Positions 3,592 to 18,612 of a stretch of 64,000 nt of DNA are shown here, in pieces (position 1 is the stretch's first letter; every line of letters begins with the position of its first letter). A program made the translations under genes and the position numbers. The DNA comes from a plasmid: the sequence record NZ_CP090789.1. The stretch is one strand, 5' to 3'. Under the pieces are notes generated by a model. The model did no database searches. It was not told where the DNA came from and worked only from the letters and a program-made list of their open reading frames with translations.

Positions 3592-4298
3592 ACCACCACG
3601 TACGCGTAAATCGAGAGCGCCCGGCTCGCCGGCCGCTCTCTCAACGCGCGCGCGTGCGCGCCAACGCCTACCACGCAAACTGGACCCACCCGCCGAGCAG
3701 TCTGCAGAAGAGGGGGTAGACCTTGGGACGGGCGGGCCTCTGGTGAGACTTTCGAGGACGTTGCGGCGCTATCGCGTTGGTCCCGAGGCAGTCTCGACCC
3801 TATCGGGGACCGGCCGCTGGCAGTGGCTAGAACAGGTTCTATCCCGGCAGGATTGTCCAGATCTCGCTGGCCGACGACGAGGTGCACTCGCCGGCCGTGA
3901 CCCTGGCATTCGGCGCCGGACGTGGTCACCTTGCGCGCGATCGGGCGCAAGCACGGGGTCAGCGCGGTCGACGCCATCCTCGGCGGACGTCGAGATAGAC
4001 ACGCAGAACTGACGAAGCGCGACCTACGACGCGTTGCATAGAGCTCGAGCTGGTCGACGTACGGTTCGGTTCTCAGCGGCGGTAACGCGGCCCACCTTGC
4101 GAGAAATTCGCGGGAGATTCGAGCCGGAATGGAAACCCTGGTAGGACGAGATGGCGCGCGGAAGAATTGACGTGCCGCAGTATTGGCGCGGGCTTTCTAC
4201 TCACAAATTCGGAACCGGCTAGTGTTGTTTCAAACTCAGGCCGGAAAATCCAAATCGGAGAATAAAGGTGCAAAGGCGTGAATGGTAAATCCCACCAT

Positions 4299-7121
4299 TT
4301 AATCACGCACGCCTCGGCCACCCCGTCGATTTTCATTGGACTGCTCGCGCTCGATTTCACCCACGCCGGCGGCCTTCCGCTGCCGCTGCAGATATTCGGC
4401 GCGGGCTGCTGCGCGTTCCGCCGCGCTCATGCCTGCGAACGGCTTCTTGTTGATTCGCACACGATCTGTCTCGGCGCGGTCGGCGCTCGAATGCCGCATA
4501 TTTTCGACAATCGCTTCCGCTCGCGCTTGCCCGCTCAGCGCGACCAATGCCTTCCAGGCACGATCGTCCCGGCTTGCGAGGTAAGCGAGACGACCGCGGA
4601 TTGCCGGATCGATATGCTCGAGCGCGGACCCTGACCGCTTAAGTTGAGCGCGCTCCTTCGCCTGCAGCGGCCGGTTATCCGCACGTGCGCGCTGCCGCTT
4701 GTCGAGCGCGTCGACGTATTGGTCCACGGCGTTATCGAGCGTCACTGGTTGTCGGCGAACCGGTGACGATGCGGCGCTCGCGGTCCGTCGAAGAGCGAGG
4801 GTATGTCGGTAGCCCCGCTCGGCGCCGAGTTCGGTTTCGGGTCGAACACCGTAATACGCGCTGAACGACTTTTCATCAACACGCGACAACGCGCGACTCA
4901 GCGCAGCGGCATCGGCAAACTCGTCCTTCCCGGACGCAAGTGTCAGCGATGTCTTGTGCCGCGTCATTGCAACGTAGGCGAGCTCCGCATGCAGACTCTT
5001 GGTCGCCAGGATGTACGCACGATCGACAGTCATGCCCTGGCTCTTGTGGATCGTCAGCGCGTAGCCGTAGTCGATTTCGCCATACGTCGCAGAGTCGATC
5101 GAAATGCTGCGACCGTTATCGAGGCGCACGTGTAGGATCGACCCGGGCTTCGAGCTTTGCTCTCGAGCCTCGATCCGCTCGATGGTTCCAAGCGAGCCGT
5201 TCTTTACGTCGATATCGTAGTCGTTCCGGAGGAACATGATCCGCTCGCCGGCCGCCAGCATCATGGTACGCGAGTGCTGGCTCTCAGCCTGGTCACTACC
5301 ATCGACGCGCTCGACCAGCTGAACCGCGTGGTCGCTGCCAAGTTCCCCGCGCGCACGAAGGGCCGAGCGGATCGCGGTGTTGAGCCCGTCACGTTGAGCA
5401 TTTGTGTGCGTCAACAAGATCTGCGAATCGCCACGGTATGCGTCCCGGTCTGCCATGAATTGTGCGACGAGCATGTCGCGCGCAGCAGCGAGCGATTCGA
5501 ACAATTGGACCGATCCACGTTCCGCATAGGCCGACACCGCGGCCGGAATTTCATGCCTAGACAATGCCTCGGATGCCTGACGTTGCCAGTCTTCCTTCTG
5601 GCGCTTGATCTCGGTTAGGCTCGACAGCGCATTCACGGCTTCGGCCTTCTTGCTGACGGCGCGGAACGCGTCGCCGGCGTCAACCGCATGCAGCTGATAT
5701 GCGTCGCCGACCATTCTAATGCGGGCATTGGCCCTTTCGATGTGACCGAGCAGCTTCTCCATTTGCCGAGAACCGACCATCCCGGCCTCATCGACGAAGA
5801 CCACCGTTCGCTCGTCAAGTATTAAGCTCCCGCGATCCAGAGAGCCGAGCAGGCTGTGCAGCGTCCGACTTTGAATGCCGGCATCGCGCTCCATGTCGTC
5901 AGCGGTTTTCCCTTGGAGAGCCGCGCCGAGGACGCGGAAGCCATCGGATTCCAGCGCTTCTCGTGCGGCCTTGAGGACGTAGCTCTTCCCCGTCCCGGCC
6001 GCGCCGTTCACGACGACAAACTGCCGATCTGATACGAGAAGAGAAAACGCCGCATCTTGGCCGGCATTGAAGTTTCGCGAGATCCGCAGAACGTCGTGAC
6101 GAGCCATGGTCCCGGATCGCGTCGGGACGTTGGAGAGACGCTCGGCGCGTGCAACGAGCCGATCCTCAAGTTCCTGAAGCTCGCCGGAAGTAAACCAGTC
6201 GCCTTCTTTGCCGGGGACGCTCAGCGCGATCAACTCTTTCGAGTTCATCATGCGAGCATAAACTTGGCGGAATTGCTCTTCTCCGTCAGTGTTGCGGAAA
6301 ACGAATTGCTCGACGTCGCGACGCGAGAATATCGACTTGGTCGCCGTTAACGCGTGCACACCAATCGACGGATTGATCAGAAGACGTTTGCCGTTGCGTT
6401 CGGCCCGCGCGCGATTCTCGGCCAGCACGTTTTCCATTACGCCCCGTTCACCGGCGTAGCGGGCGACACCAACCTTGAGCGAAGGCTCAAGTTCGATACC
6501 GAGCGTCTTGTAACTCCGATGGTCGATGCGAGCCTCGATGCCGTGTCGTGCCATGAAGTGATTTGCGGTCACCGCCCATTCCTCGCGGACGTCGACCACG
6601 AACTGTCTGCTGCTCAGATAGCGGTCTTTGCCAGCCCCGCCTTTCTCAGGATGCTCGCGATTCCAGCGACGAAAGAACTGCTCGGGATCTCGTGGAATCC
6701 CGTCGTTCACGCGCTCCGTAAACATGATGTGGGCGTGAGGCTGTTCCAGACCATCGCTCGCAGCGGGGTTGTGGATTGCCCAAGAATAGGCGTGGCGTTC
6801 ACCGAGCGTGTTCTGGACAAACTCCCGAACCAATTCGACGCGCTGCTCATCGTTCAATTCGCGCGGGATGGAAACCTCGATCTCGCGGTACGGACGACCG
6901 TTGACTCGCTCGTACTGATCGGCAGCTTGCCAGAAAGCGCTCGGATCATGCTCGGCCCATGCCGGCATGTTTCCGCTCTCAGACATCTTCAGATCGCCGC
7001 GTTCCTCGTATCGCCCACCACGCGAGATATAGGCGTAGTGATCCTCACGTGCGATGTACTTGGCATGCTCGCCTGCCTTGGCAGCTTTGCCTGGTTTGAC
7101 GCTGAGGTGGTAGGTCGACAC
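4299..7121 (-). CDS. traA: Conjugative relaxase/helicase, TraA-like: MobA/MobL-family relaxase N-terminus fused to a RecD/TraA-type helicase
   Basis: 940 aa with a GTG start. The N-terminal MSTYHLSVKPGK...KYIAREDHYA signature and the HAHIMF histidine triad are typical of MobA/MobL relaxases. A Walker A motif (GAAGTGKSY) and helicase motifs sit in the central/C-terminal part. Architecture matches Ti/rhizobial TraA. Confidence 0.85.
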   Translation of the reverse strand: MSTYHLSVKPGKAAKAGEHAKYIAREDHYAYISRGGRYEERGDLKMSESGNMPAWAEHDPSAFWQAADQYERVNGRPYREIEVSIPRELNDEQRVELVREFVQNTLGERHAYSWAIHNPAASDGLEQPHAHIMFTERVNDGIPRDPEQFFRRWNREHPEKGGAGKDRYLSSRQFVVDVREEWAVTANHFMARHGIEARIDHRSYKTLGIELEPSLKVGVARYAGERGVMENVLAENRARAERNGKRLLINPSIGVHALTATKSIFSRRDVEQFVFRNTDGEEQFRQVYARMMNSKELIALSVPGKEGDWFTSGELQELEDRLVARAERLSNVPTRSGTMARHDVLRISRNFNAGQDAAFSLLVSDRQFVVVNGAAGTGKSYVLKAAREALESDGFRVLGAALQGKTADDMERDAGIQSRTLHSLLGSLDRGSLILDERTVVFVDEAGMVGSRQMEKLLGHIERANARIRMVGDAYQLHAVDAGDAFRAVSKKAEAVNALSSLTEIKRQKEDWQRQASEALSRHEIPAAVSAYAERGSVQLFESLAAARDMLVAQFMADRDAYRGDSQILLTHTNAQRDGLNTAIRSALRARGELGSDHAVQLVERVDGSDQAESQHSRTMMLAAGERIMFLRNDYDIDVKNGSLGTIERIEAREQSSKPGSILHVRLDNGRSISIDSATYGEIDYGYALTIHKSQGMTVDRAYILATKSLHAELAYVAMTRHKTSLTLASGKDEFADAAALSRALSRVDEKSFSAYYGVRPETELGAERGYRHTLALRRTASAASSPVRRQPVTLDNAVDQYVDALDKRQRARADNRPLQAKERAQLKRSGSALEHIDPAIRGRLAYLASRDDRAWKALVALSGQARAEAIVENMRHSSADRAETDRVRINKKPFAGMSAAERAAARAEYLQRQRKAAGVGEIEREQSNENRRGGRGVRD

Positions 7122-7151: not shown

Positions 7152-7190
7152 GTTTCTATGCTAGCATAGAAACGCGTAAGCGCGCGTTGT
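7152..7190 (+). promoter_or_regulatory. Putative oriT: perfect 22-bp palindrome GTTTCTATGCTAGCATAGAAAC followed by an RSF1010-like nick core GCGTAAGCGCGCG
   Basis: Seen directly, 30 bp upstream of the relaxase start and between divergent relaxase and accessory genes. In RSF1010/R1162 the oriT is an inverted repeat ending in AGAAACCGG followed by TAAGTGCGCC|CT. Here the inverted repeat ends AGAAAC-GCG and is followed by TAAGCGCGCG. Confidence 0.6.
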
Positions 7191-7928: not shown

Positions 7929-9920
7929 TTACTGACCGTCCGGTGCGTCTGCTGCTTCCGCCTCACGCGTCGGGTGTTCGATCGGGAAAGTCGATTCCCG
8001 ATTCGTCAGCACATCTGGAAGCCATCCCGATTCAACCAGTTGCATTTCGGCCGCTGCGGCGGCATCTCCCTTCTTCATCGAACCCAGCGGCATTGCGGCC
8101 GTCGCCGAAACCGCCTGTGCCATTACATCGACGATGCGCTGTTTCGACACGTGGTTGAGGTAACTCGTCTGCGTCGGCTTCCAGTAGCGCACCATGTCCA
8201 CGTCGAGCACGTCGGCCAGCGTGTTGACGGCGTGCGGCTTGTTCTCCCGCGCGATTCCGTTGACCATCGCCGCAACGCAGAAGGCAAACAGGCCCGACAG
8301 AGTGTCGTCTGTCGCTTCCAGCAGCCACGGCAGCAAGTGGCGCAGTTCGTTCGGCATCGTTGCCGCCCATTTCGTGCGCTCGGCGTCGATGATCCGCCAT
8401 GCCGTACTGTCGGTCATGTCATCCGCAACGCTGGAGAGTTGGTCCAGACTCGGCCGGAAAGTCGCTTCGAGCGCGTGGTATTCGCGCCAATGATCGTCAA
8501 ACTGTTCCTCGAACACGTCAGGAATCATCGTGTACAAGAGGTAGGCCATCGCCACGTCCGGGCGCTTCGCAAGCTCCGCCTGCACAGCAGCAGTGCGATG
8601 AGCAGTCAGCCGAACGCAGAGAGTTTCGCTGTGGACGGGGCGGGCTTTCGTCGTCCGCTCGGCCTGCTCGCCGTGCTGACCACCGGAAACAGCGGCGGCG
8701 ACTTCCTGCGGTTTGACAACGCCGCGCCTGACTTCAAGTTCGCCATTTGCGTCGATCCAGACTTGCGCGCCAGCACCGGCTTTTTGCTCGTCGGTCCATA
8801 CCTCACAACGTTCTTCGAACGCGTCCAGCGCTGCCTGAGCGTCGCGCACGGCTTGATGGAGCACGTCGCCGTCGGCGTCCGAATCTTCCGTATCGTAGTG
8901 CGCGTCGAGCGCAGCATCCGCACTCTGGCACGCCTGTTCCAGCTTGCGATGTTCCGCTTTCTCCTTCTTCGTCAGTTCGCGGCGCTCCGGGTCCAACTGG
9001 CGCACACGCATCGCCATGAGCGCCTCTCGTCGTACTGCCGCGTCCACCCACGCCCAACCCTCGGCGCGCACTTCCTCGGCGGCGGCCGTCAGCTTTTCCA
9101 CGGCAAGGCGGTTTAGCAATTCGAGGTCGGCCACAAATCCGCCGTTTCCGTCGCCGCTGAACAGGTCGCGTCGCACATATCCGCCCGCGTCCTCGTAGGC
9201 GTCGAGGCCGATGAATCGCGCGAGGGAATTCGTGGCCGCATTCACTTCGGCTTTGGTGATGACCGCCCGAATCTCGCGGGGGCTGCGCTGCCACTCCTGA
9301 ATCGATTCGAACCAAATCCGCTCTTGTTGTTCGGTGTCGTCGGACAGTGCGAGCGCGCACGCCTGCTCGTAATCCATCCCGTCATCACGAAACACTTCTA
9401 GCAGCTTCGGCGAAATGTTCGCCAGCTTCAATGCGCGACGGACAACCGTTTCTGACACGGAAAACCGAGCGGCAATGTCGGGAATTGATCGGCCCTCCGC
9501 AATGAGTTCGCGGAACGCGACGCACTGGTCGGCGATGTGCATCCCTTCGCGCTGGACGTTCTCCGCAAGCGAGATCGCCAGCGCTTCGCCGGCGGAGACG
9601 ATCAGCACGGGCACGAGATCCGTATCCGACCAGCGGCCTCGGGATTTCAGGAGGTCCAGTCCGCCCAAGCGGCCTTGGCCGGCGCAGATTCCGAACGGAC
9701 GAAGGCCGTTCCTTTGTCCATCTTCATCGATCGGATGCCCTACGAGGTTTTGCAGCAAGCCGTTAGCGTCGATGTCGTCAGCAAGCGCGGGGATGTTCTT
9801 GGCGGGCTTCTTCCGCACGTTGCGGGGTGACACGCACAGCTGGCCAAATGGGATGTAGTTGATTTTCCCGAACGTGTACGGGACGGGGTTGGCGAGGATC
9901 GTATCTGCTACTTGGTTCAC
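7929..9920 (-). CDS. Large ParB/Srx-domain (ParB-like nuclease domain) protein of plasmid leading regions
   Basis: About 664 aa from GTG 9920 with a GGAGA RBS. The N-terminal ParB-like box (GLLQNLVGHPIDEDG...RRAL..A) is recognisable, followed by a long acidic C-terminal region. The ORF track extends the start to 9962 through the inverted-repeat arm. Confidence 0.7.
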   Translation of the reverse strand: MNQVADTILANPVPYTFGKINYIPFGQLCVSPRNVRKKPAKNIPALADDIDANGLLQNLVGHPIDEDGQRNGLRPFGICAGQGRLGGLDLLKSRGRWSDTDLVPVLIVSAGEALAISLAENVQREGMHIADQCVAFRELIAEGRSIPDIAARFSVSETVVRRALKLANISPKLLEVFRDDGMDYEQACALALSDDTEQQERIWFESIQEWQRSPREIRAVITKAEVNAATNSLARFIGLDAYEDAGGYVRRDLFSGDGNGGFVADLELLNRLAVEKLTAAAEEVRAEGWAWVDAAVRREALMAMRVRQLDPERRELTKKEKAEHRKLEQACQSADAALDAHYDTEDSDADGDVLHQAVRDAQAALDAFEERCEVWTDEQKAGAGAQVWIDANGELEVRRGVVKPQEVAAAVSGGQHGEQAERTTKARPVHSETLCVRLTAHRTAAVQAELAKRPDVAMAYLLYTMIPDVFEEQFDDHWREYHALEATFRPSLDQLSSVADDMTDSTAWRIIDAERTKWAATMPNELRHLLPWLLEATDDTLSGLFAFCVAAMVNGIARENKPHAVNTLADVLDVDMVRYWKPTQTSYLNHVSKQRIVDVMAQAVSATAAMPLGSMKKGDAAAAAEMQLVESGWLPDVLTNRESTFPIEHPTREAEAADAPDGQ

Positions 9921-10127
9921 GGTTTTTCTCCGGTTATCGCCTACAGCACACCGCCGAGGCATAAAATAATTATAGGACGAAACGTCCTTATAGTGTCGGA
10001 TTTAAATAAAACCCACAAACCTTTATCGGGTATTCATATTATTTTGCGTATAGGGACGAAACGTCCTATAATTACAACCATGCCCTAGCGATTCCGCCGT
10101 GGGCGATAACCGGAGAAAAACCGTGAA
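9916..10127. promoter_or_regulatory. Divergent control region bounded by perfect 26-bp inverted repeats that contain the RBS and GTG start of both flanking genes; it holds two copies of a 13-bp core GGACGAAACGTCC inside TATAGGACG-AAA-CGTCCTATA palindromes
   Basis: Seen directly. Arm 9916-9941 is the exact reverse complement of arm 10102-10127 (GGCGATAACCGGAGAAAAACCGTGAA). Palindromic sites lie at 9971-9992 and 10049-10072. Both divergent ORFs therefore begin with the same peptide (G)DNRRKTVNQV. Confidence 0.7.
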
Positions 10128-10542
10128 TCAAGTTGAACTGGAAGTGAAGCGTTACGAGTGGCCCGATCATCAGCGCGCGGCCTTCTTCCCGCATTATCTG
10201 AAGCGTCGAGCGGCATGTGCGCAATTGGCCGTCGTGCGCTGGGCCAAAATTCTGTTCCCGGCCTATACGACGTCCGGCTGGCACTTTTATGGGCTGGAAT
10301 CCAAGGGCTTCTATGTCGCTCCGCTGCTGCTGAAGGACGAACAAATCGAAGTCGGTGGCCACCGCATGAGCGCCGATGCGTTCGGCGTACTGGTTACGCT
10401 GGCGGCTCTGGAGGAAATGGGGGAGTCGGAACTGTTCACCGCGTTGCATGGCTTTGCTTGCCTTCACGATGAGGCACGGGCAATTCTCGGCGGCGGTGAG
10501 ATCGCCCGCGACGAGATGATTTCGGCAGAAATTCCGTTCTAA
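10123..10542 (+). CDS. Hypothetical protein divergent from the ParB-like gene; possible KlcA/ArdB-like antirestriction protein (weak)
   Basis: About 139 aa from GTG 10123 (or GTG 10099), with an RBS identical to that of the ParB-like gene. Size and leading-region context fit small antirestriction proteins, but no motif is confidently recognised. Confidence 0.45.
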   Translation: MNQVELEVKRYEWPDHQRAAFFPHYLKRRAACAQLAVVRWAKILFPAYTTSGWHFYGLESKGFYVAPLLLKDEQIEVGGHRMSADAFGVLVTLAALEEMGESELFTALHGFACLHDEARAILGGGEIARDEMISAEIPF

Positions 10543-10583: not shown

Positions 10584-10787
10584 ATGATCTATTCGATTAG
10601 CGAAGTAGAGGCCGCGATCAACATCTGGCGGAACCGGCTCGAATCTGGCGACGATGCGGCGCTGTGCGCCCCGGCGCGTGCGCTGGCCGAGCCGTACGGG
10701 CTGATGGTGTATGAAGGTCGCGAAACGATCAGCGATCATGAGATGACGGCGAAGGCTCGCGAAGCAATGGCTGTGCTCGTTGCCTGA
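10584..10787 (+). CDS. Small hypothetical protein (67 aa)
   Basis: ORF with a weak RBS and a codon-usage-consistent frame. No recognised domain. Confidence 0.3.
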   Translation: MIYSISEVEAAINIWRNRLESGDDAALCAPARALAEPYGLMVYEGRETISDHEMTAKAREAMAVLVA

Positions 10788-11105
10788 CGCCGCCTGCGCG
10801 ACGAGTGCAGCGCGGATACCCGCGATAGACCCTGTGCTTGCCGCGGGCGAGGGGAGACCCTCCCTCCTGCAAGCCGGGGTTTTGTTGCTCGACCAGGTGT
10901 CGCGCGCGCCGCGCGCCCGGATCGAGGCGCACGGGTGCCCCGCGCCCGCGTAGGCGGGCGCAAGGGAGAGCGCCGGCCCGCCGCAACGCGGCGGGACGAT
11001 CCGGCTCAGCCTTCGATTATCGGCATGGGGTAGTCAAGCGGCCGTGAGGCCGCGTGTTTCCTCCGCGGCGAAGCCGTGGGGGCTGGATATGGGATGGACT
11101 GAAAA

Positions 11106-11381
11106 ATGACGCAAGATCTACGGGCCACTGTGCGGCCCGAATGTTTGCAACCGGCGCGACTGTGGATGGAACCGACGGCGGGTGAAATCCGCCTGGTGCT
11201 CGATCGCTGCGGATTCACGCGACGAAACGCAAGCATTTTCCTCGGCATCGAAGAGACCGGCCGAAGCGTGGGCCGCTGGCTCAGCGGGGAGCACTCGATT
11301 CCCTATTCGGCCTGGGCGCTGCTTTGCGCCCGGGCCGGTCTCGGAAACATATGGGAAGAGGGCGGCACCGACGCGTCGTAG
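11106..11381 (+). CDS. Small helix-turn-helix DNA-binding protein (XRE/Cro-like)
   Basis: 91 aa. The segment IRLVLDRCGFTRRNASIFLGIEETGRSVGRWLSGEHSIPYSAWALL looks like an HTH. Confidence 0.45.
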   Translation: MTQDLRATVRPECLQPARLWMEPTAGEIRLVLDRCGFTRRNASIFLGIEETGRSVGRWLSGEHSIPYSAWALLCARAGLGNIWEEGGTDAS

Positions 11382-11741
11382 CGTCGGCTCCGCCCGCGGC
11401 TTCTATACCTTCATGTTCGCGTGAGAGGGTTTGTTTTCGATCGCGCCGGCGCCGATCAGGTCACCGGCCTGGTCGGCGCCGGCGCGATCGAATTACGAGG
11501 ACGGTGATGCCGGCCTTCAAACGCGGCCGCGGAACATTTGGCCGGCGCGGAAGGCTGCACGCATCGCGTGTTCGATATCGGAAATGCGAACCTCCTCCGG
11601 CGTGTACTCCGGAATTTCGCGGTCAATGATCGGATGGCCAAAGGTTGATTCGGCGATTGCGTTCAACACAGCGTCAACAAGGTAGCGTTCCATGGTATGT
11701 CCAGTTCGGTGGCCCGCGGCGCTTGGCGCCGCAGGCAGTTT

Positions 11742-12386
11742 TTAGGCAGCGATGGCGAGGCGGTCGATCTCTAGCCGGTCGCAAGCAGCGGCGTAGTAGG
11801 TCGGATCGAGCTCGATGCCGATGTAGTAGCGGCCGAGCTCGCGCGCGGCAACGCATGTCGAGCCCGACCCAGCGAACGGATCAAGGACGACGTCGCCAGG
11901 GGCCGTGTACGTCTCGATGAGTCGCTTGAGGCACGGAACCGGCTTCTGCGTGGGATGGTGCCGATTGCCGGAATATTCCCAGCGCATCACGTCAGGCAGC
12001 GGCGTAGCCGGCACAGCCGGCTGGCCCTTCGCGAGCACGTACGCGGATTCGTGGCGGTACGCGACAAAGCGCGATTTCGACGCATAGGACTTCGCGAAAA
12101 CGATGTGGCCGACGACGCGCAGGCCCGCGCGCTTCCACGCGTCGAAAAAGCGGTCCGTTTTCGTCCAGCCGTAGAAGCTCACGCAAAGCGTGTTCGGCTT
12201 CATGACGCGGTACACCTCCGCGAATGCCGGCGCCAGCCAGTCCGATTTCACATCGTTTGCGATCGAGCGCCCGGAGCGATCGTGATAGTTGACGAGATAG
12301 GGCGGGTCAGTCAGGACGAAGTCGACCACGCCGTCCGGAATGGACGGCAACACTTCCAGGCAGTCGCCGTTATAGAGAAAGCTCAT
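11742..12386 (-). CDS. Orphan beta-class DNA methyltransferase (N6-adenine or N4-cytosine type)
   Basis: 214 aa. The DPPY catalytic motif (motif IV) precedes the FAGSGST SAM-binding motif (motif I), the beta-class order. No restriction endonuclease partner is visible nearby. Confidence 0.85.
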   Translation of the reverse strand: MSFLYNGDCLEVLPSIPDGVVDFVLTDPPYLVNYHDRSGRSIANDVKSDWLAPAFAEVYRVMKPNTLCVSFYGWTKTDRFFDAWKRAGLRVVGHIVFAKSYASKSRFVAYRHESAYVLAKGQPAVPATPLPDVMRWEYSGNRHHPTQKPVPCLKRLIETYTAPGDVVLDPFAGSGSTCVAARELGRYYIGIELDPTYYAAACDRLEIDRLAIAA

Positions 12387-12807
12387 GTATGCGCTCCACA
12401 GTTGGGGGGCGGATAGCGCGTTTCCGTGTGCGGCTCCGAAATGTCGCTACCCGGCGCTTGCGAGCGCCGCGCAGGGGTTGCCGGTCAAGGGACCGTGGAA
12501 TAACGGGGAGGCAGTCCGTAGGAGGGCACCGTTTATGCCGCGAAAGCCCTTGAAAGAGTGGGCGCGCGCCGGAGCGTGCGGGCCCGTTCTGGCCGGCGAA
12601 ACCAGCGCGGCGATCGTTTGCGACGGGTAGCGACATCCATTTAGAACCCCGGGCGCTTTATCTCCTTTCGGGCGTGGTTAGAGCCACTAGCCGAGGCCTG
12701 GAGGGGGAGGTTCGGCGTGCGGTTACTCATGAGGGCGGGCCTCGGTTTATGGGCCGCCCGATCTGGAGTGCGCCGCGCGCCCGGAAGGGGATAGGCTGCG
12801 GGCTGTG

Positions 12808-14865: not shown

Positions 14866-15335
14866 CAAGATTCTGAGTCCCCGCGTATTGGGTTCTGTCG
14901 AGTCGGCGTGCTGCGCTTCGCAGCTGCCGCCGGTCCCCTTAGTTCGTCGTCCCGCGAACGGACGAGCGCCGGCCGGCGCCGGGTCAAGGGATCACGCGCG
15001 GGGTGGGGCGGGAGGGAGCGCAGCGCACGACACGGCCTCGCGCGCCTTGACGCGGCAAAGGCCGGCGCTACGGTCGCGGAACTAGGACGACGAGCTCAGG
15101 GGACGGGAAGGTCGGTAGCGGCCGCATGCCGATGAGGCAGAACGCCGCGCGCGGCGAGCGCGCTATCTGAGGCGCGAAGCGGCTCAGGTGGACATGGGGT
15201 GGCCAGCGCCGGGGCGTGCTGCGGGACGCAGCTCGGCCCCTAGAGCGTGGTGGGGTATCCGGGCCGCGGAGAAAGCGGCTCGCGTGGCAAAGCGATCACG
15301 TCGGTTTGGTGCGCGAGCCGGCGCGGCTCGGCTCG
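14866..15335. repeat. Copy A of a ~470-bp structured direct repeat (about 95% identical to 18140-18612), immediately upstream of the minus-strand methyltransferase-fusion gene
   Basis: Seen directly by alignment of the two regions. It contains an 18-bp long-range imperfect inverted repeat (14935-14952 with 15085-15102), the 14-bp palindrome GCGCCGGCCGGCGC, and other GC hairpins. The ORF-track entries inside it (14830..15135, 15188..15475 and twins) are duplicated shadow ORFs. Confidence 0.8.
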
Positions 15336-18139: not shown

Positions 18140-18612
18140 CCCGGGCTCCAAGATTCGGAGTCCCGACGTATTGGGTTCTGTTGAGTCGGCGTGCTGCGCT
18201 TCGCAGCTGCCGCCGGTCCCCTTAGTTCGTCGTCCCGCGAACGGACCAGCGCCGGCCGGCGCCGGGTCAAGGGAACACGCGCGGGGTGGGGCGGGAGGGA
18301 GCGCAGCGCACGACACGGCCCCGCGCGCCTTGACGCGGCAAAGGCCGGCGCTACGGTCGCGGAACTAGGACGACGAGCTCAGGGGACGAGAAGGTCGGTA
18401 GCGGCCGCATGCCGATGAGGCAGAACGCCGCGCGCGGCGAGCGCGCTATCTGAGGCGCGGAGCGGCTCAGGTGGACATGGGGTGGCCAGCGCCGGGGCGG
18501 GCTGCGGAACGCAGCGCGGCCCCTAGAGCGTGGTGGGACATCCGGGCCGCGGAGAAAGCGGCTCGCGTGGCAAATCGATTACGTCGGTTTGGTGCGCGAG
18601 CCGTCGCGGTCC
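18140..18612. repeat. Copy B of the ~470-bp structured direct repeat, immediately upstream of the minus-strand Cys-rich/PAPS-reductase operon
   Basis: Seen directly. It carries the same internal long-range inverted repeat and GC palindromes as copy A. Confidence 0.8.

Follow-up and report, generated by a model that had tools for sequence, protein, structure and literature searches.

The 64,000-nucleotide stretch of plasmid NZ_CP090789.1 analysed here (the window) carries two divergent genes, a ParB-like gene (7929-9920, minus strand, 663 amino acids counted from its GTG) and an ardB/klcA anti-restriction gene (10123-10542, plus strand, 139 amino acids), whose facing starts lie inside a perfect inverted repeat. 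This locus probably consists of two head-to-head copies of one promoter-leader cassette under the control of the repressor KorC, which would give a burst of expression in a new host and then shut it off. Each copy would be composed, in order, of a weak -35 element, a 13-bp KorC-type operator in the spacer that abuts TATAAT, a leader of about 43 nt opening with a stem-loop, the block TAACCGGAGAAAAACC and a GTG start codon; one copy would drive ardB/klcA, a DUF3717 gene and a korC homologue rightwards and the other the ParB-like gene leftwards. The arrangement is most plausibly a mirror-image form of the KorC circuit that is already known, not a new mechanism, and the inverted repeat, perfect across both start codons, most plausibly follows from this arrangement and from copying between the arms, rather than being a purpose-built structure.

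Direct comparison of the sequence bore out that 10102-10127 is the exact reverse complement of 9916-9941 over 26 nt (left arm TTCACGGTTTTTCTCCGGTTATCGCC), as an earlier note on this DNA had described, and the repeat extends to 38 nt at 92% when three mismatches are allowed (9910-9947 and 10096-10133). The 26-mer has no further copy in the window, and 0 of 100 shuffles gave any match. The perfect arms do enclose a 160-bp spacer with two sites, and the GC content of this spacer is 41% as compared with 61.5% for the window. The exact sequence GGACGAAACGTCC is found at 9975-9987 and 10054-10066 and at no other position across the 64 kb, with a start-to-start distance of 79 bp instead of the 80 bp given before. 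The description of these sites as twin 13-bp palindromes was right as to two exact sites; the core is a 5+3+5 inverted repeat, GGACG-AAA-CGTCC, whose two copies carry the central AAA on one and the same strand, and it is therefore no true 13-bp palindrome, while the TATA arms around the cores (TATAGGACGAAACGTCCTTATA and TATAGGGACGAAACGTCCTATA) are imperfect. The left outer arm (9910-9947, minus strand, perfect core 9916-9941), conserved in the 13 loci described below, is composed of the 3' half of the ParB-side leader hairpin, the Shine-Dalgarno GGAG, the GTG and three codons; on the plus strand its Shine-Dalgarno reads CTCC at 9928-9931 and its start codon CAC at 9918-9920. The right outer arm (10096-10133, plus strand, perfect core 10102-10127) is read from the sequence in the same way, as the 3' half of the ardB-side leader hairpin, GGAG (10112-10115), GTG (10123-10125) and three codons.

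The comparison with related plasmids covered 13 loci: the window, five close plasmids (L001-L005), Burkholderia sp. Ac-20353 (L009), two metagenome contigs (L012, L013) and, more distantly related, four plasmids from B. contaminans, Caballeronia and Paraburkholderia fungorum (L014-L017), the last group with ParB-like proteins 48-58% identical and ArdB 34-36% identical. The mirrored cassettes and the divergent pair were present in 13/13 loci from Burkholderia, Paraburkholderia and Caballeronia, and the inverted repeat, proposed earlier from this one sequence, held up across these relatives.

On the ParB-like side, the -10 element TATAAT is located at 9969-9974 (minus strand) with a weak -35, GACACT, at 9992-9997, and the left operator (9975-9987) abuts this -10. 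The rightward promoter of ardB (10044-10072, plus strand) contains the -35 TTGCGT (10044-10049), a 17-bp spacer and the -10 TATAAT (10067-10072), and its spacer is filled by the right operator (10054-10066), which abuts the -10 in the same manner. Transcription is predicted to start at about 9961-9962 leftwards and at about 10079-10080 rightwards. In 26/26 modules of the 13 loci, an GGnCnnnnnGnCC site lies 0-1 nt from a TAnnnT -10, and the start codon follows 45-50 nt downstream. The operator sequence varies by lineage, for example GGTCATTATGTCC, and in Caballeronia it is GGGCACTTTGCCC, near the IncP-1 site; the Caballeronia locus L015 carries TAGGGCACTTTGCCCTA on both sides. Such lineage-specific operators would be expected because the repressor would co-evolve with them. 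The form and position of the twin sites support their assignment, at the sequence level, as operators of a dimeric repressor for both divergent promoters, and the mirrored co-regulation by a dimeric operator-binding protein that had been suggested fits these features.

The start of each gene is a GTG after GGAG-N7, at 10123 on the plus strand and at 9920 on the minus strand. The same GTG starts are used by the NCBI annotation of all relatives, the tblastn alignment of IncP-1 klcA begins at residue 1 of the window ArdB, and in L012, L015, L016 and L017 an in-frame stop or the lack of an upstream start codon excludes a longer open reading frame (in L017 the stop is 15 nt 5' of the start codon). 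The longer open reading frames from ATG 9962 and GTG 10099 were rejected on these three grounds, which also bear out that the true starts are inside the repeat and that one translation-initiation region is common to both genes. Because the true starts are at these GTG codons, the repeat contains, besides the ribosome-binding site and the start codon, about three codons (M-N-Q-V) and not about eight; the shared eight-codon peptide reported before was an artefact of translating the leader, and '(G)DNRRKTV' is translated 5' leader, not a shared N-terminal peptide. The right-hand gene, formerly called hypothetical, is an ArdB/KlcA anti-restriction gene (PF03230, E 6e-10) whose product is 34-36% identical to IncP-1 KlcA. 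As a side observation, the predicted transcription starts (9962-9960 and 10080-10082) both fall on a conserved CATGCC, and each message would open with AUG; on the ardB side this AUG is followed by CCC TAG, a two-codon mini-open reading frame, and the ParB-side AUG is in frame with its gene and precedes the GTG by 14 codons. In other lineages the CATGCC position reads GTGGCC and belongs to the leader stem.

Both leaders carry a stem-loop, at 10082-10104 on the plus strand for ardB (GCCC...GGGC with an inner GCG/CGC stem) and at 9939-9960 on the minus strand for the ParB-like gene (GCCUCGGC...GCUG-AGGC). When the leaders were folded one by one, a common stem-loop was found in 26/26, with energies of -7.6 to -15.5 kcal/mol and z-scores mostly of -2 to -3.7; it spans from a few bases past the predicted transcription start to just before (C/U)UAACCGGAG, and by this position the outer arm equals the 3' stem half plus the Shine-Dalgarno block plus the start codon. 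Compensatory changes were seen between orthologous leaders, as in L012 (GGCCGUGGC...GCUGCGGUC) versus L014 (GGCCUCGGC...GCUGAGGUC), and RNAalifold returned no consensus structure for the 26 leaders, in which a bulged base shifts the alignment register. The identical block (3' stem, TAACCGGAGAAAAACC, GTG) of both messages could also be the target of a shared small RNA or RNA-binding protein, which would co-regulate their translation or stability and keep the arms identical in this way. The stems and the Shine-Dalgarno block of one plasmid do resemble each other more closely than they resemble their orthologues, and the loops drift; the ACCGGAGAA block is conserved as far as IncP-1. However, no candidate factor or antisense promoter and no Rfam family match was found, the ParB-side leaders favour the sense strand by 4-6 kcal/mol with an overall sense versus antisense difference that is not significant (p = 0.22), and whole-leader replacement in L016 and L017 indicates that copying between the arms occurs. 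Such an RNA-level factor is in our view very doubtful. Under the two-cassette reading, the common leader would give both messages the same 5' structure and the same translation start.

The repressor proposed for both promoters is encoded by a korC homologue (11106-11381, plus strand, 91 amino acids), which is 49% identical to KorC of IncP-1 pB12 over 86 of 91 amino acids (E 9e-26). Its relatives are annotated by NCBI as XRE-family regulators, and it is located downstream of ardB in eight related loci (L001-L005, L009, L014, L017). With only two operators in 64 kb, this KorC seems to be a local and not a global regulator. The earlier note had suggested the ParB-like protein itself or a KorB-type regulator as a possible factor that binds the twin sites and co-regulates the divergent pair. 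The ParB-like gene is one of the two regulated genes, and its product gives a weak ParB helix-turn-helix match under the Pfam threshold (E 0.0011). But the form and position of the operators match those of KorC sites; a korC homologue is encoded on the ardB strand; the complete plasmid NZ_CP048463.1 keeps both operators and korC and has no ParB-like homologue (best tblastn E 1.4); and neither the KorB operator (O_B, TTTAGCSGCTAAA) nor a parS site gave a match in the window when up to 2 or 3 mismatches were allowed. Since operators and korC exist without the ParB-like gene and the window contains no O_B or parS match, the ParB-like protein is cargo and not the operator binder, and regulation by it or by a KorB-type protein is extremely improbable. 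ParB-like proteins of this type are found on at least 5000 plasmids, mostly conjugative, and are widespread in plasmid leading regions.

The circuit closely resembles that of the KorC-controlled kilC (klcA-klcB-korC) and kilE (kleA, kleC) promoters in the IncP-1 plasmids RK2, RP4 and pB12, which share with the window a KorC repressor (49%), KlcA/ArdB first in the operon with korC downstream, a palindromic operator between -35 and -10 that touches the -10, a leader made of a GC stem-loop followed by ACCGGAGAA and the start, and an entire promoter-to-start cassette repeated before more than one gene; in the window, too, an anti-restriction gene is among those that the operators would control. 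The order ardB/klcA, small gene, korC parallels klcA-klcB-korC, and the small gene in the window is the DUF3717 gene (10584-10787, plus strand, 67 amino acids), which lies between ardB and korC and is kept in L001-L005 and L017. The promoters of klcA and kleA in pB12 read TTGAC(G/A)..TAGGACATTTTGCCCTAATAT, then a GC stem-loop, ACTACCGGAGAA, a few bases and ATG, the stretch from operator to ATG being nearly identical ahead of the two genes and in direct orientation; the window promoter reads TTGCGT-A-TAGGGACGAAACGTCCTATAAT, then a stem-loop, then ATAACCGGAGAAAAACCGTG. KorC has been reported to repress the klcA, kleA and kleC promoters, and the pOXA-48 KorC site is located between -35 and -10 (PMC12365149). 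The window differs from IncP-1 in that the copies are inverted, head to head and 160 bp apart instead of being direct repeats kilobases apart; its operator core is GGACGAAACGTCC; its operators are accompanied neither by a KorA operator (GTTTAGCTAAA in pB12) nor by a KorB operator; and the second regulated gene is a leading-region ParB-like gene in place of kle. From the direct-repeat cassette of IncP-1 it follows that a ribosome site and start shared through cassette duplication were already known in this regulon, and the novelty of the window lies in the copies facing each other, so that the duplication becomes an inverted repeat.

A second parallel is RA3 (IncU), in which KorC controls klcAp and the oppositely oriented promoters orf02p and orf02prev, and orf02p and klcAp arose by duplication (PMC9455977, PMC7414963). 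KorC of RA3, in contrast, regulates the replication, stability and transfer modules globally and acts with KorB, and a mirror duplication including the ribosome-binding site and start is not described in PMC7414963 and PMC9455977. A search of the searchable literature gave no description of the KorC-type circuit of these Burkholderia-type plasmids.

On this model the plasmid would arrive in a cell that has no KorC. As soon as the DNA is double-stranded, both promoters would fire and produce a burst of anti-restriction and ParB-like protein, i.e., zygotic induction; KorC, co-transcribed with ardB, would then accumulate, and its dimer would occupy both operators and block RNA polymerase, closing a negative-feedback unit. 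Among RP4 genes, klcA shows the strongest induction in fresh transconjugants, and KorA and KorC repress it (PMC7314908). The 26-38-bp inverted repeat would be a by-product of the mirror arrangement: the outer arm would occasionally be copied from side to side, each 5' stem half would then adapt to pair with it, and purifying selection on the ribosome-site block together with repeated copying between the arms would keep the arms near-perfect.

The arms have evolved in concert. Cross-arm complementarity was found in 87% of cells of a nine-sequence alignment, with 13 pairs changed on both sides, and the covariation score was 0.192 versus 0.093 in shuffles (0/500 reached 0.192) and 0.03-0.08 in slid controls. 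Over eight lineages, arm identity was 0.92 within a plasmid as compared with 0.72-0.79 between orthologues, and the leader stems gave 0.85-0.86 within a plasmid versus 0.50-0.61 between orthologues; the leader loops are not homogenised (0.25-0.58), two lineages excepted. L016 has an ardB-type leader on both sides and L017 a ParB-type leader on both sides, so that one arm must have been copied onto the other there. The perfect repeat measures 26 nt in the window and in L015, 29 nt in L016 (leader only), at least 43 nt in L017 and 11 nt in L014, and this patchy length argues for sporadic copying and not for a fixed functional stem. Flip-flop inversion between the arms was considered as well and is not supported, as the ardB-type and ParB-type loops stay with their own genes across clades.

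Selection for pairing between the arms would be another source of such symmetry. The earlier note had supposed that the arms could form a stem on the transferred strand which sequesters or exposes the start sites; DNA is not translated, and a stem of this kind cannot hide starts. A hairpin in the incoming strand can, however, rebuild a duplex promoter, as in the Frpo/ssi elements (PMC11541004, PMC7736820), and in the incoming plus strand 9910-10133 might form a hairpin of 224 nt from which the ParB-like gene is transcribed, as from a single-strand promoter, before the second strand is made. The left arm would serve as template, with the right arm (TTGCGT-17-TATAAT) as the non-template strand, and the symmetry would be selected for pairing. 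The locus would then be a two-mode pair, a KorC-repressed divergent promoter as duplex and, on entry, a single-strand promoter that fires solely towards the gene templated by the transferred strand, which would be the ParB-like gene here and small leading-region genes in other plasmids. We regard both the hairpin promoter and this two-mode version as unlikely.

The position of the locus is suited to such a function. A candidate transfer origin is located at 7152-7190 (plus strand), where a perfect 22-bp palindrome, GTTTCTATGCTAGCATAGAAAC, is followed by GCGTAAGCGCG/CG, the slash marking the presumed nick. The palindrome and the GCGTAAGCGCGCG behind it are close to the inverted repeat and nick region of RSF1010, whose nick substrate is CAGTTTCTCGAAGAGAAACCGGTAAGTGCG/CCCTCCC (PMC4814116). 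The candidate is conserved in L002-L005 and L017, and a Paraburkholderia fungorum plasmid whose annotation includes a Ti-type TraA relaxase matches it at 95% over 39 nt. By analogy with RSF1010, the plus strand would be nicked near 7184/7185 and enter the recipient with its 5' end first, which would put about 2.7 kb of leading region ahead of the mirrored locus and make the transferred strand the template of the ParB-like gene. Folded as DNA, 9900-10143 gives -61 to -63 kcal/mol for either strand, with z-scores of about -10 to -11, and the -10 is fully paired in the predicted fold. The changes on both sides that maintain cross-arm complementarity, the homogenised stems with unhomogenised loops and the long hairpins 5' of other minus-strand leading genes (12441-12636, 14930-15107 and 18216-18387) would fit as well. 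As in the Frpo/ssi elements of F and ColIb-P9, a long imperfect hairpin with a paired -10 can form in the presumed leading region 5' of a gene templated by the transferred strand.

Against this, the -35 (10044-10049) falls in the irregular, bulged apical part of the fold and forms no clean duplex, unlike that of Frpo (PMC11541004), and the other arm looks like a working promoter and leader in its own right, serving the divergent gene. Two operators that track one repressor already explain the covariation of the inner arms, the -10 hexamers differ between the arms in L014-L016, an AAA/AAA bubble and large internal loops occur in the window clade, and the changes in L004 and L005 suit the local leader stem better than DNA pairing from arm to arm. 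The IncP-1 cassette, as a direct repeat, cannot form the hairpin at all. Rfam gave only sub-threshold matches to plant microRNA precursors, which mean no more than 'long hairpin'. Were the hairpin nevertheless used, selection for pairing would explain the arm identity across Burkholderiaceae plasmids, and two ordinary promoters placed head to head would be a new design of single-strand promoter and an addition to the biology of plasmid establishment.

The explanation by two KorC-controlled cassettes, which we favour, also has several points to its disadvantage. Both -35 elements are weak, that of the ParB side especially, and a consensus promoter scan called neither promoter, both -35 hexamers being below 4/6. 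No Pfam or NCBIfam model names the korC homologue. A 318-bp GC-rich non-coding gap (10788-11105) with two weak terminator-like hairpins separates the DUF3717 gene from korC, and korC may have its own promoter, as in RA3, instead of depending solely on read-through from the ardB promoter. Homogenised stems with unhomogenised loops are not expected from a single contiguous conversion tract, and some unnamed selection for arm identity may act.

In the B. multivorans plasmids L003-L005, the left gene is an unrelated 81-amino-acid open reading frame and the cassette is kept, which looks as if cargo had been exchanged while the promoter-leader cassette stayed in place; one of the three, examined over its whole length, lacks a ParB-like gene altogether. 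The place of that gene is taken by six to seven small hypothetical genes (49-101 amino acids, locus positions about 4150-6023), all on the strand templated by the transferred strand, and the breakpoint is within a few codons of the shared GTG. These are candidate small anti-defence genes. Promoter, leader and ribosome site act as a portable unit that is kept while the downstream genes are swapped. The known KorC/klcA circuit of IncP-1 and IncU is found here in a new setting, the leading region in plasmids that have a Ti-type relaxase, in Burkholderia, Paraburkholderia and Caballeronia, including isolates from cystic-fibrosis-related species. It offers candidate operator/repressor pairs and a natural, compact and symmetric two-way expression unit that would be repressible. 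It also provides a clear case of inverted regulatory copies evolving together and a caution against reading such repeats as purpose-built.

A genome scan with the ArdB protein found nothing, a protein word-index search gave only 3 close clusters, and a first metagenome pattern (-10 plus arm) had no match. The second metagenome pattern yielded the two true relatives L012 and L013 and two unrelated matches, L010 and L011. L011 was a chance match and was dropped; L010 (MJUJ01000848.1, about 1651-1907) is an unrelated AT-rich, near-perfect palindrome that takes up about 250 bp at one end of a 1.9-kb contig and may stem either from a fold-back error of assembly or from a hairpin telomere. The divergent ardB arrangement is missing from P. 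aeruginosa and Rhizobium plasmids whose ParB-like genes are related.

Behind korC, a palindrome at 11436-11492 (25-nt arms, 96%, 7-nt loop) probably serves as a two-way terminator that closes the operon; it sits between the end of korC and a convergent 58-amino-acid open reading frame on the minus strand (11517-11693, weak DUF6900 match). The window also encodes a MobA/MobL-type relaxase with a helicase domain (4299-7121, minus strand) and a TraD gene, and the neighbours of the mirrored locus are typical leading-region cargo: the ParB-like gene, ardB, the DUF3717 gene, an N6/N4 methyltransferase and a DUF3560-methyltransferase fusion, together with a gene annotated by NCBI as PAPS-reductase-like in close relatives. 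Directly 5' of the minus-strand gene for the 214-amino-acid N6/N4 DNA methyltransferase (11742-12386), a long imperfect hairpin is located at 12441-12636 (47-nt arms, 79%; DNA fold -81.7 kcal/mol, z-score -4.8). Conserved at 91-97% in L001-L003 and L005, this leading-region hairpin is a candidate for a single-strand promoter or for a site of priming. Another hairpin, GC-rich and nested, measures about 180-200 nt (z-score -6.6) and is present in two copies that are 98% identical, at 14918-15120 and 18201-18403, and each copy lies just 5' of a minus-strand leading-region operon, one being the DUF3560-methyltransferase gene and the other a 196-amino-acid open reading frame followed by a 609-amino-acid one (PAPS-reductase-like by NCBI in relatives). 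The repeated hairpins ahead of these leading-region genes recall the Frpo/ssi repeats of F and ColIb-P9, and the right arm of the twin GC-rich hairpins contains TTGACG-16-TACGGT.

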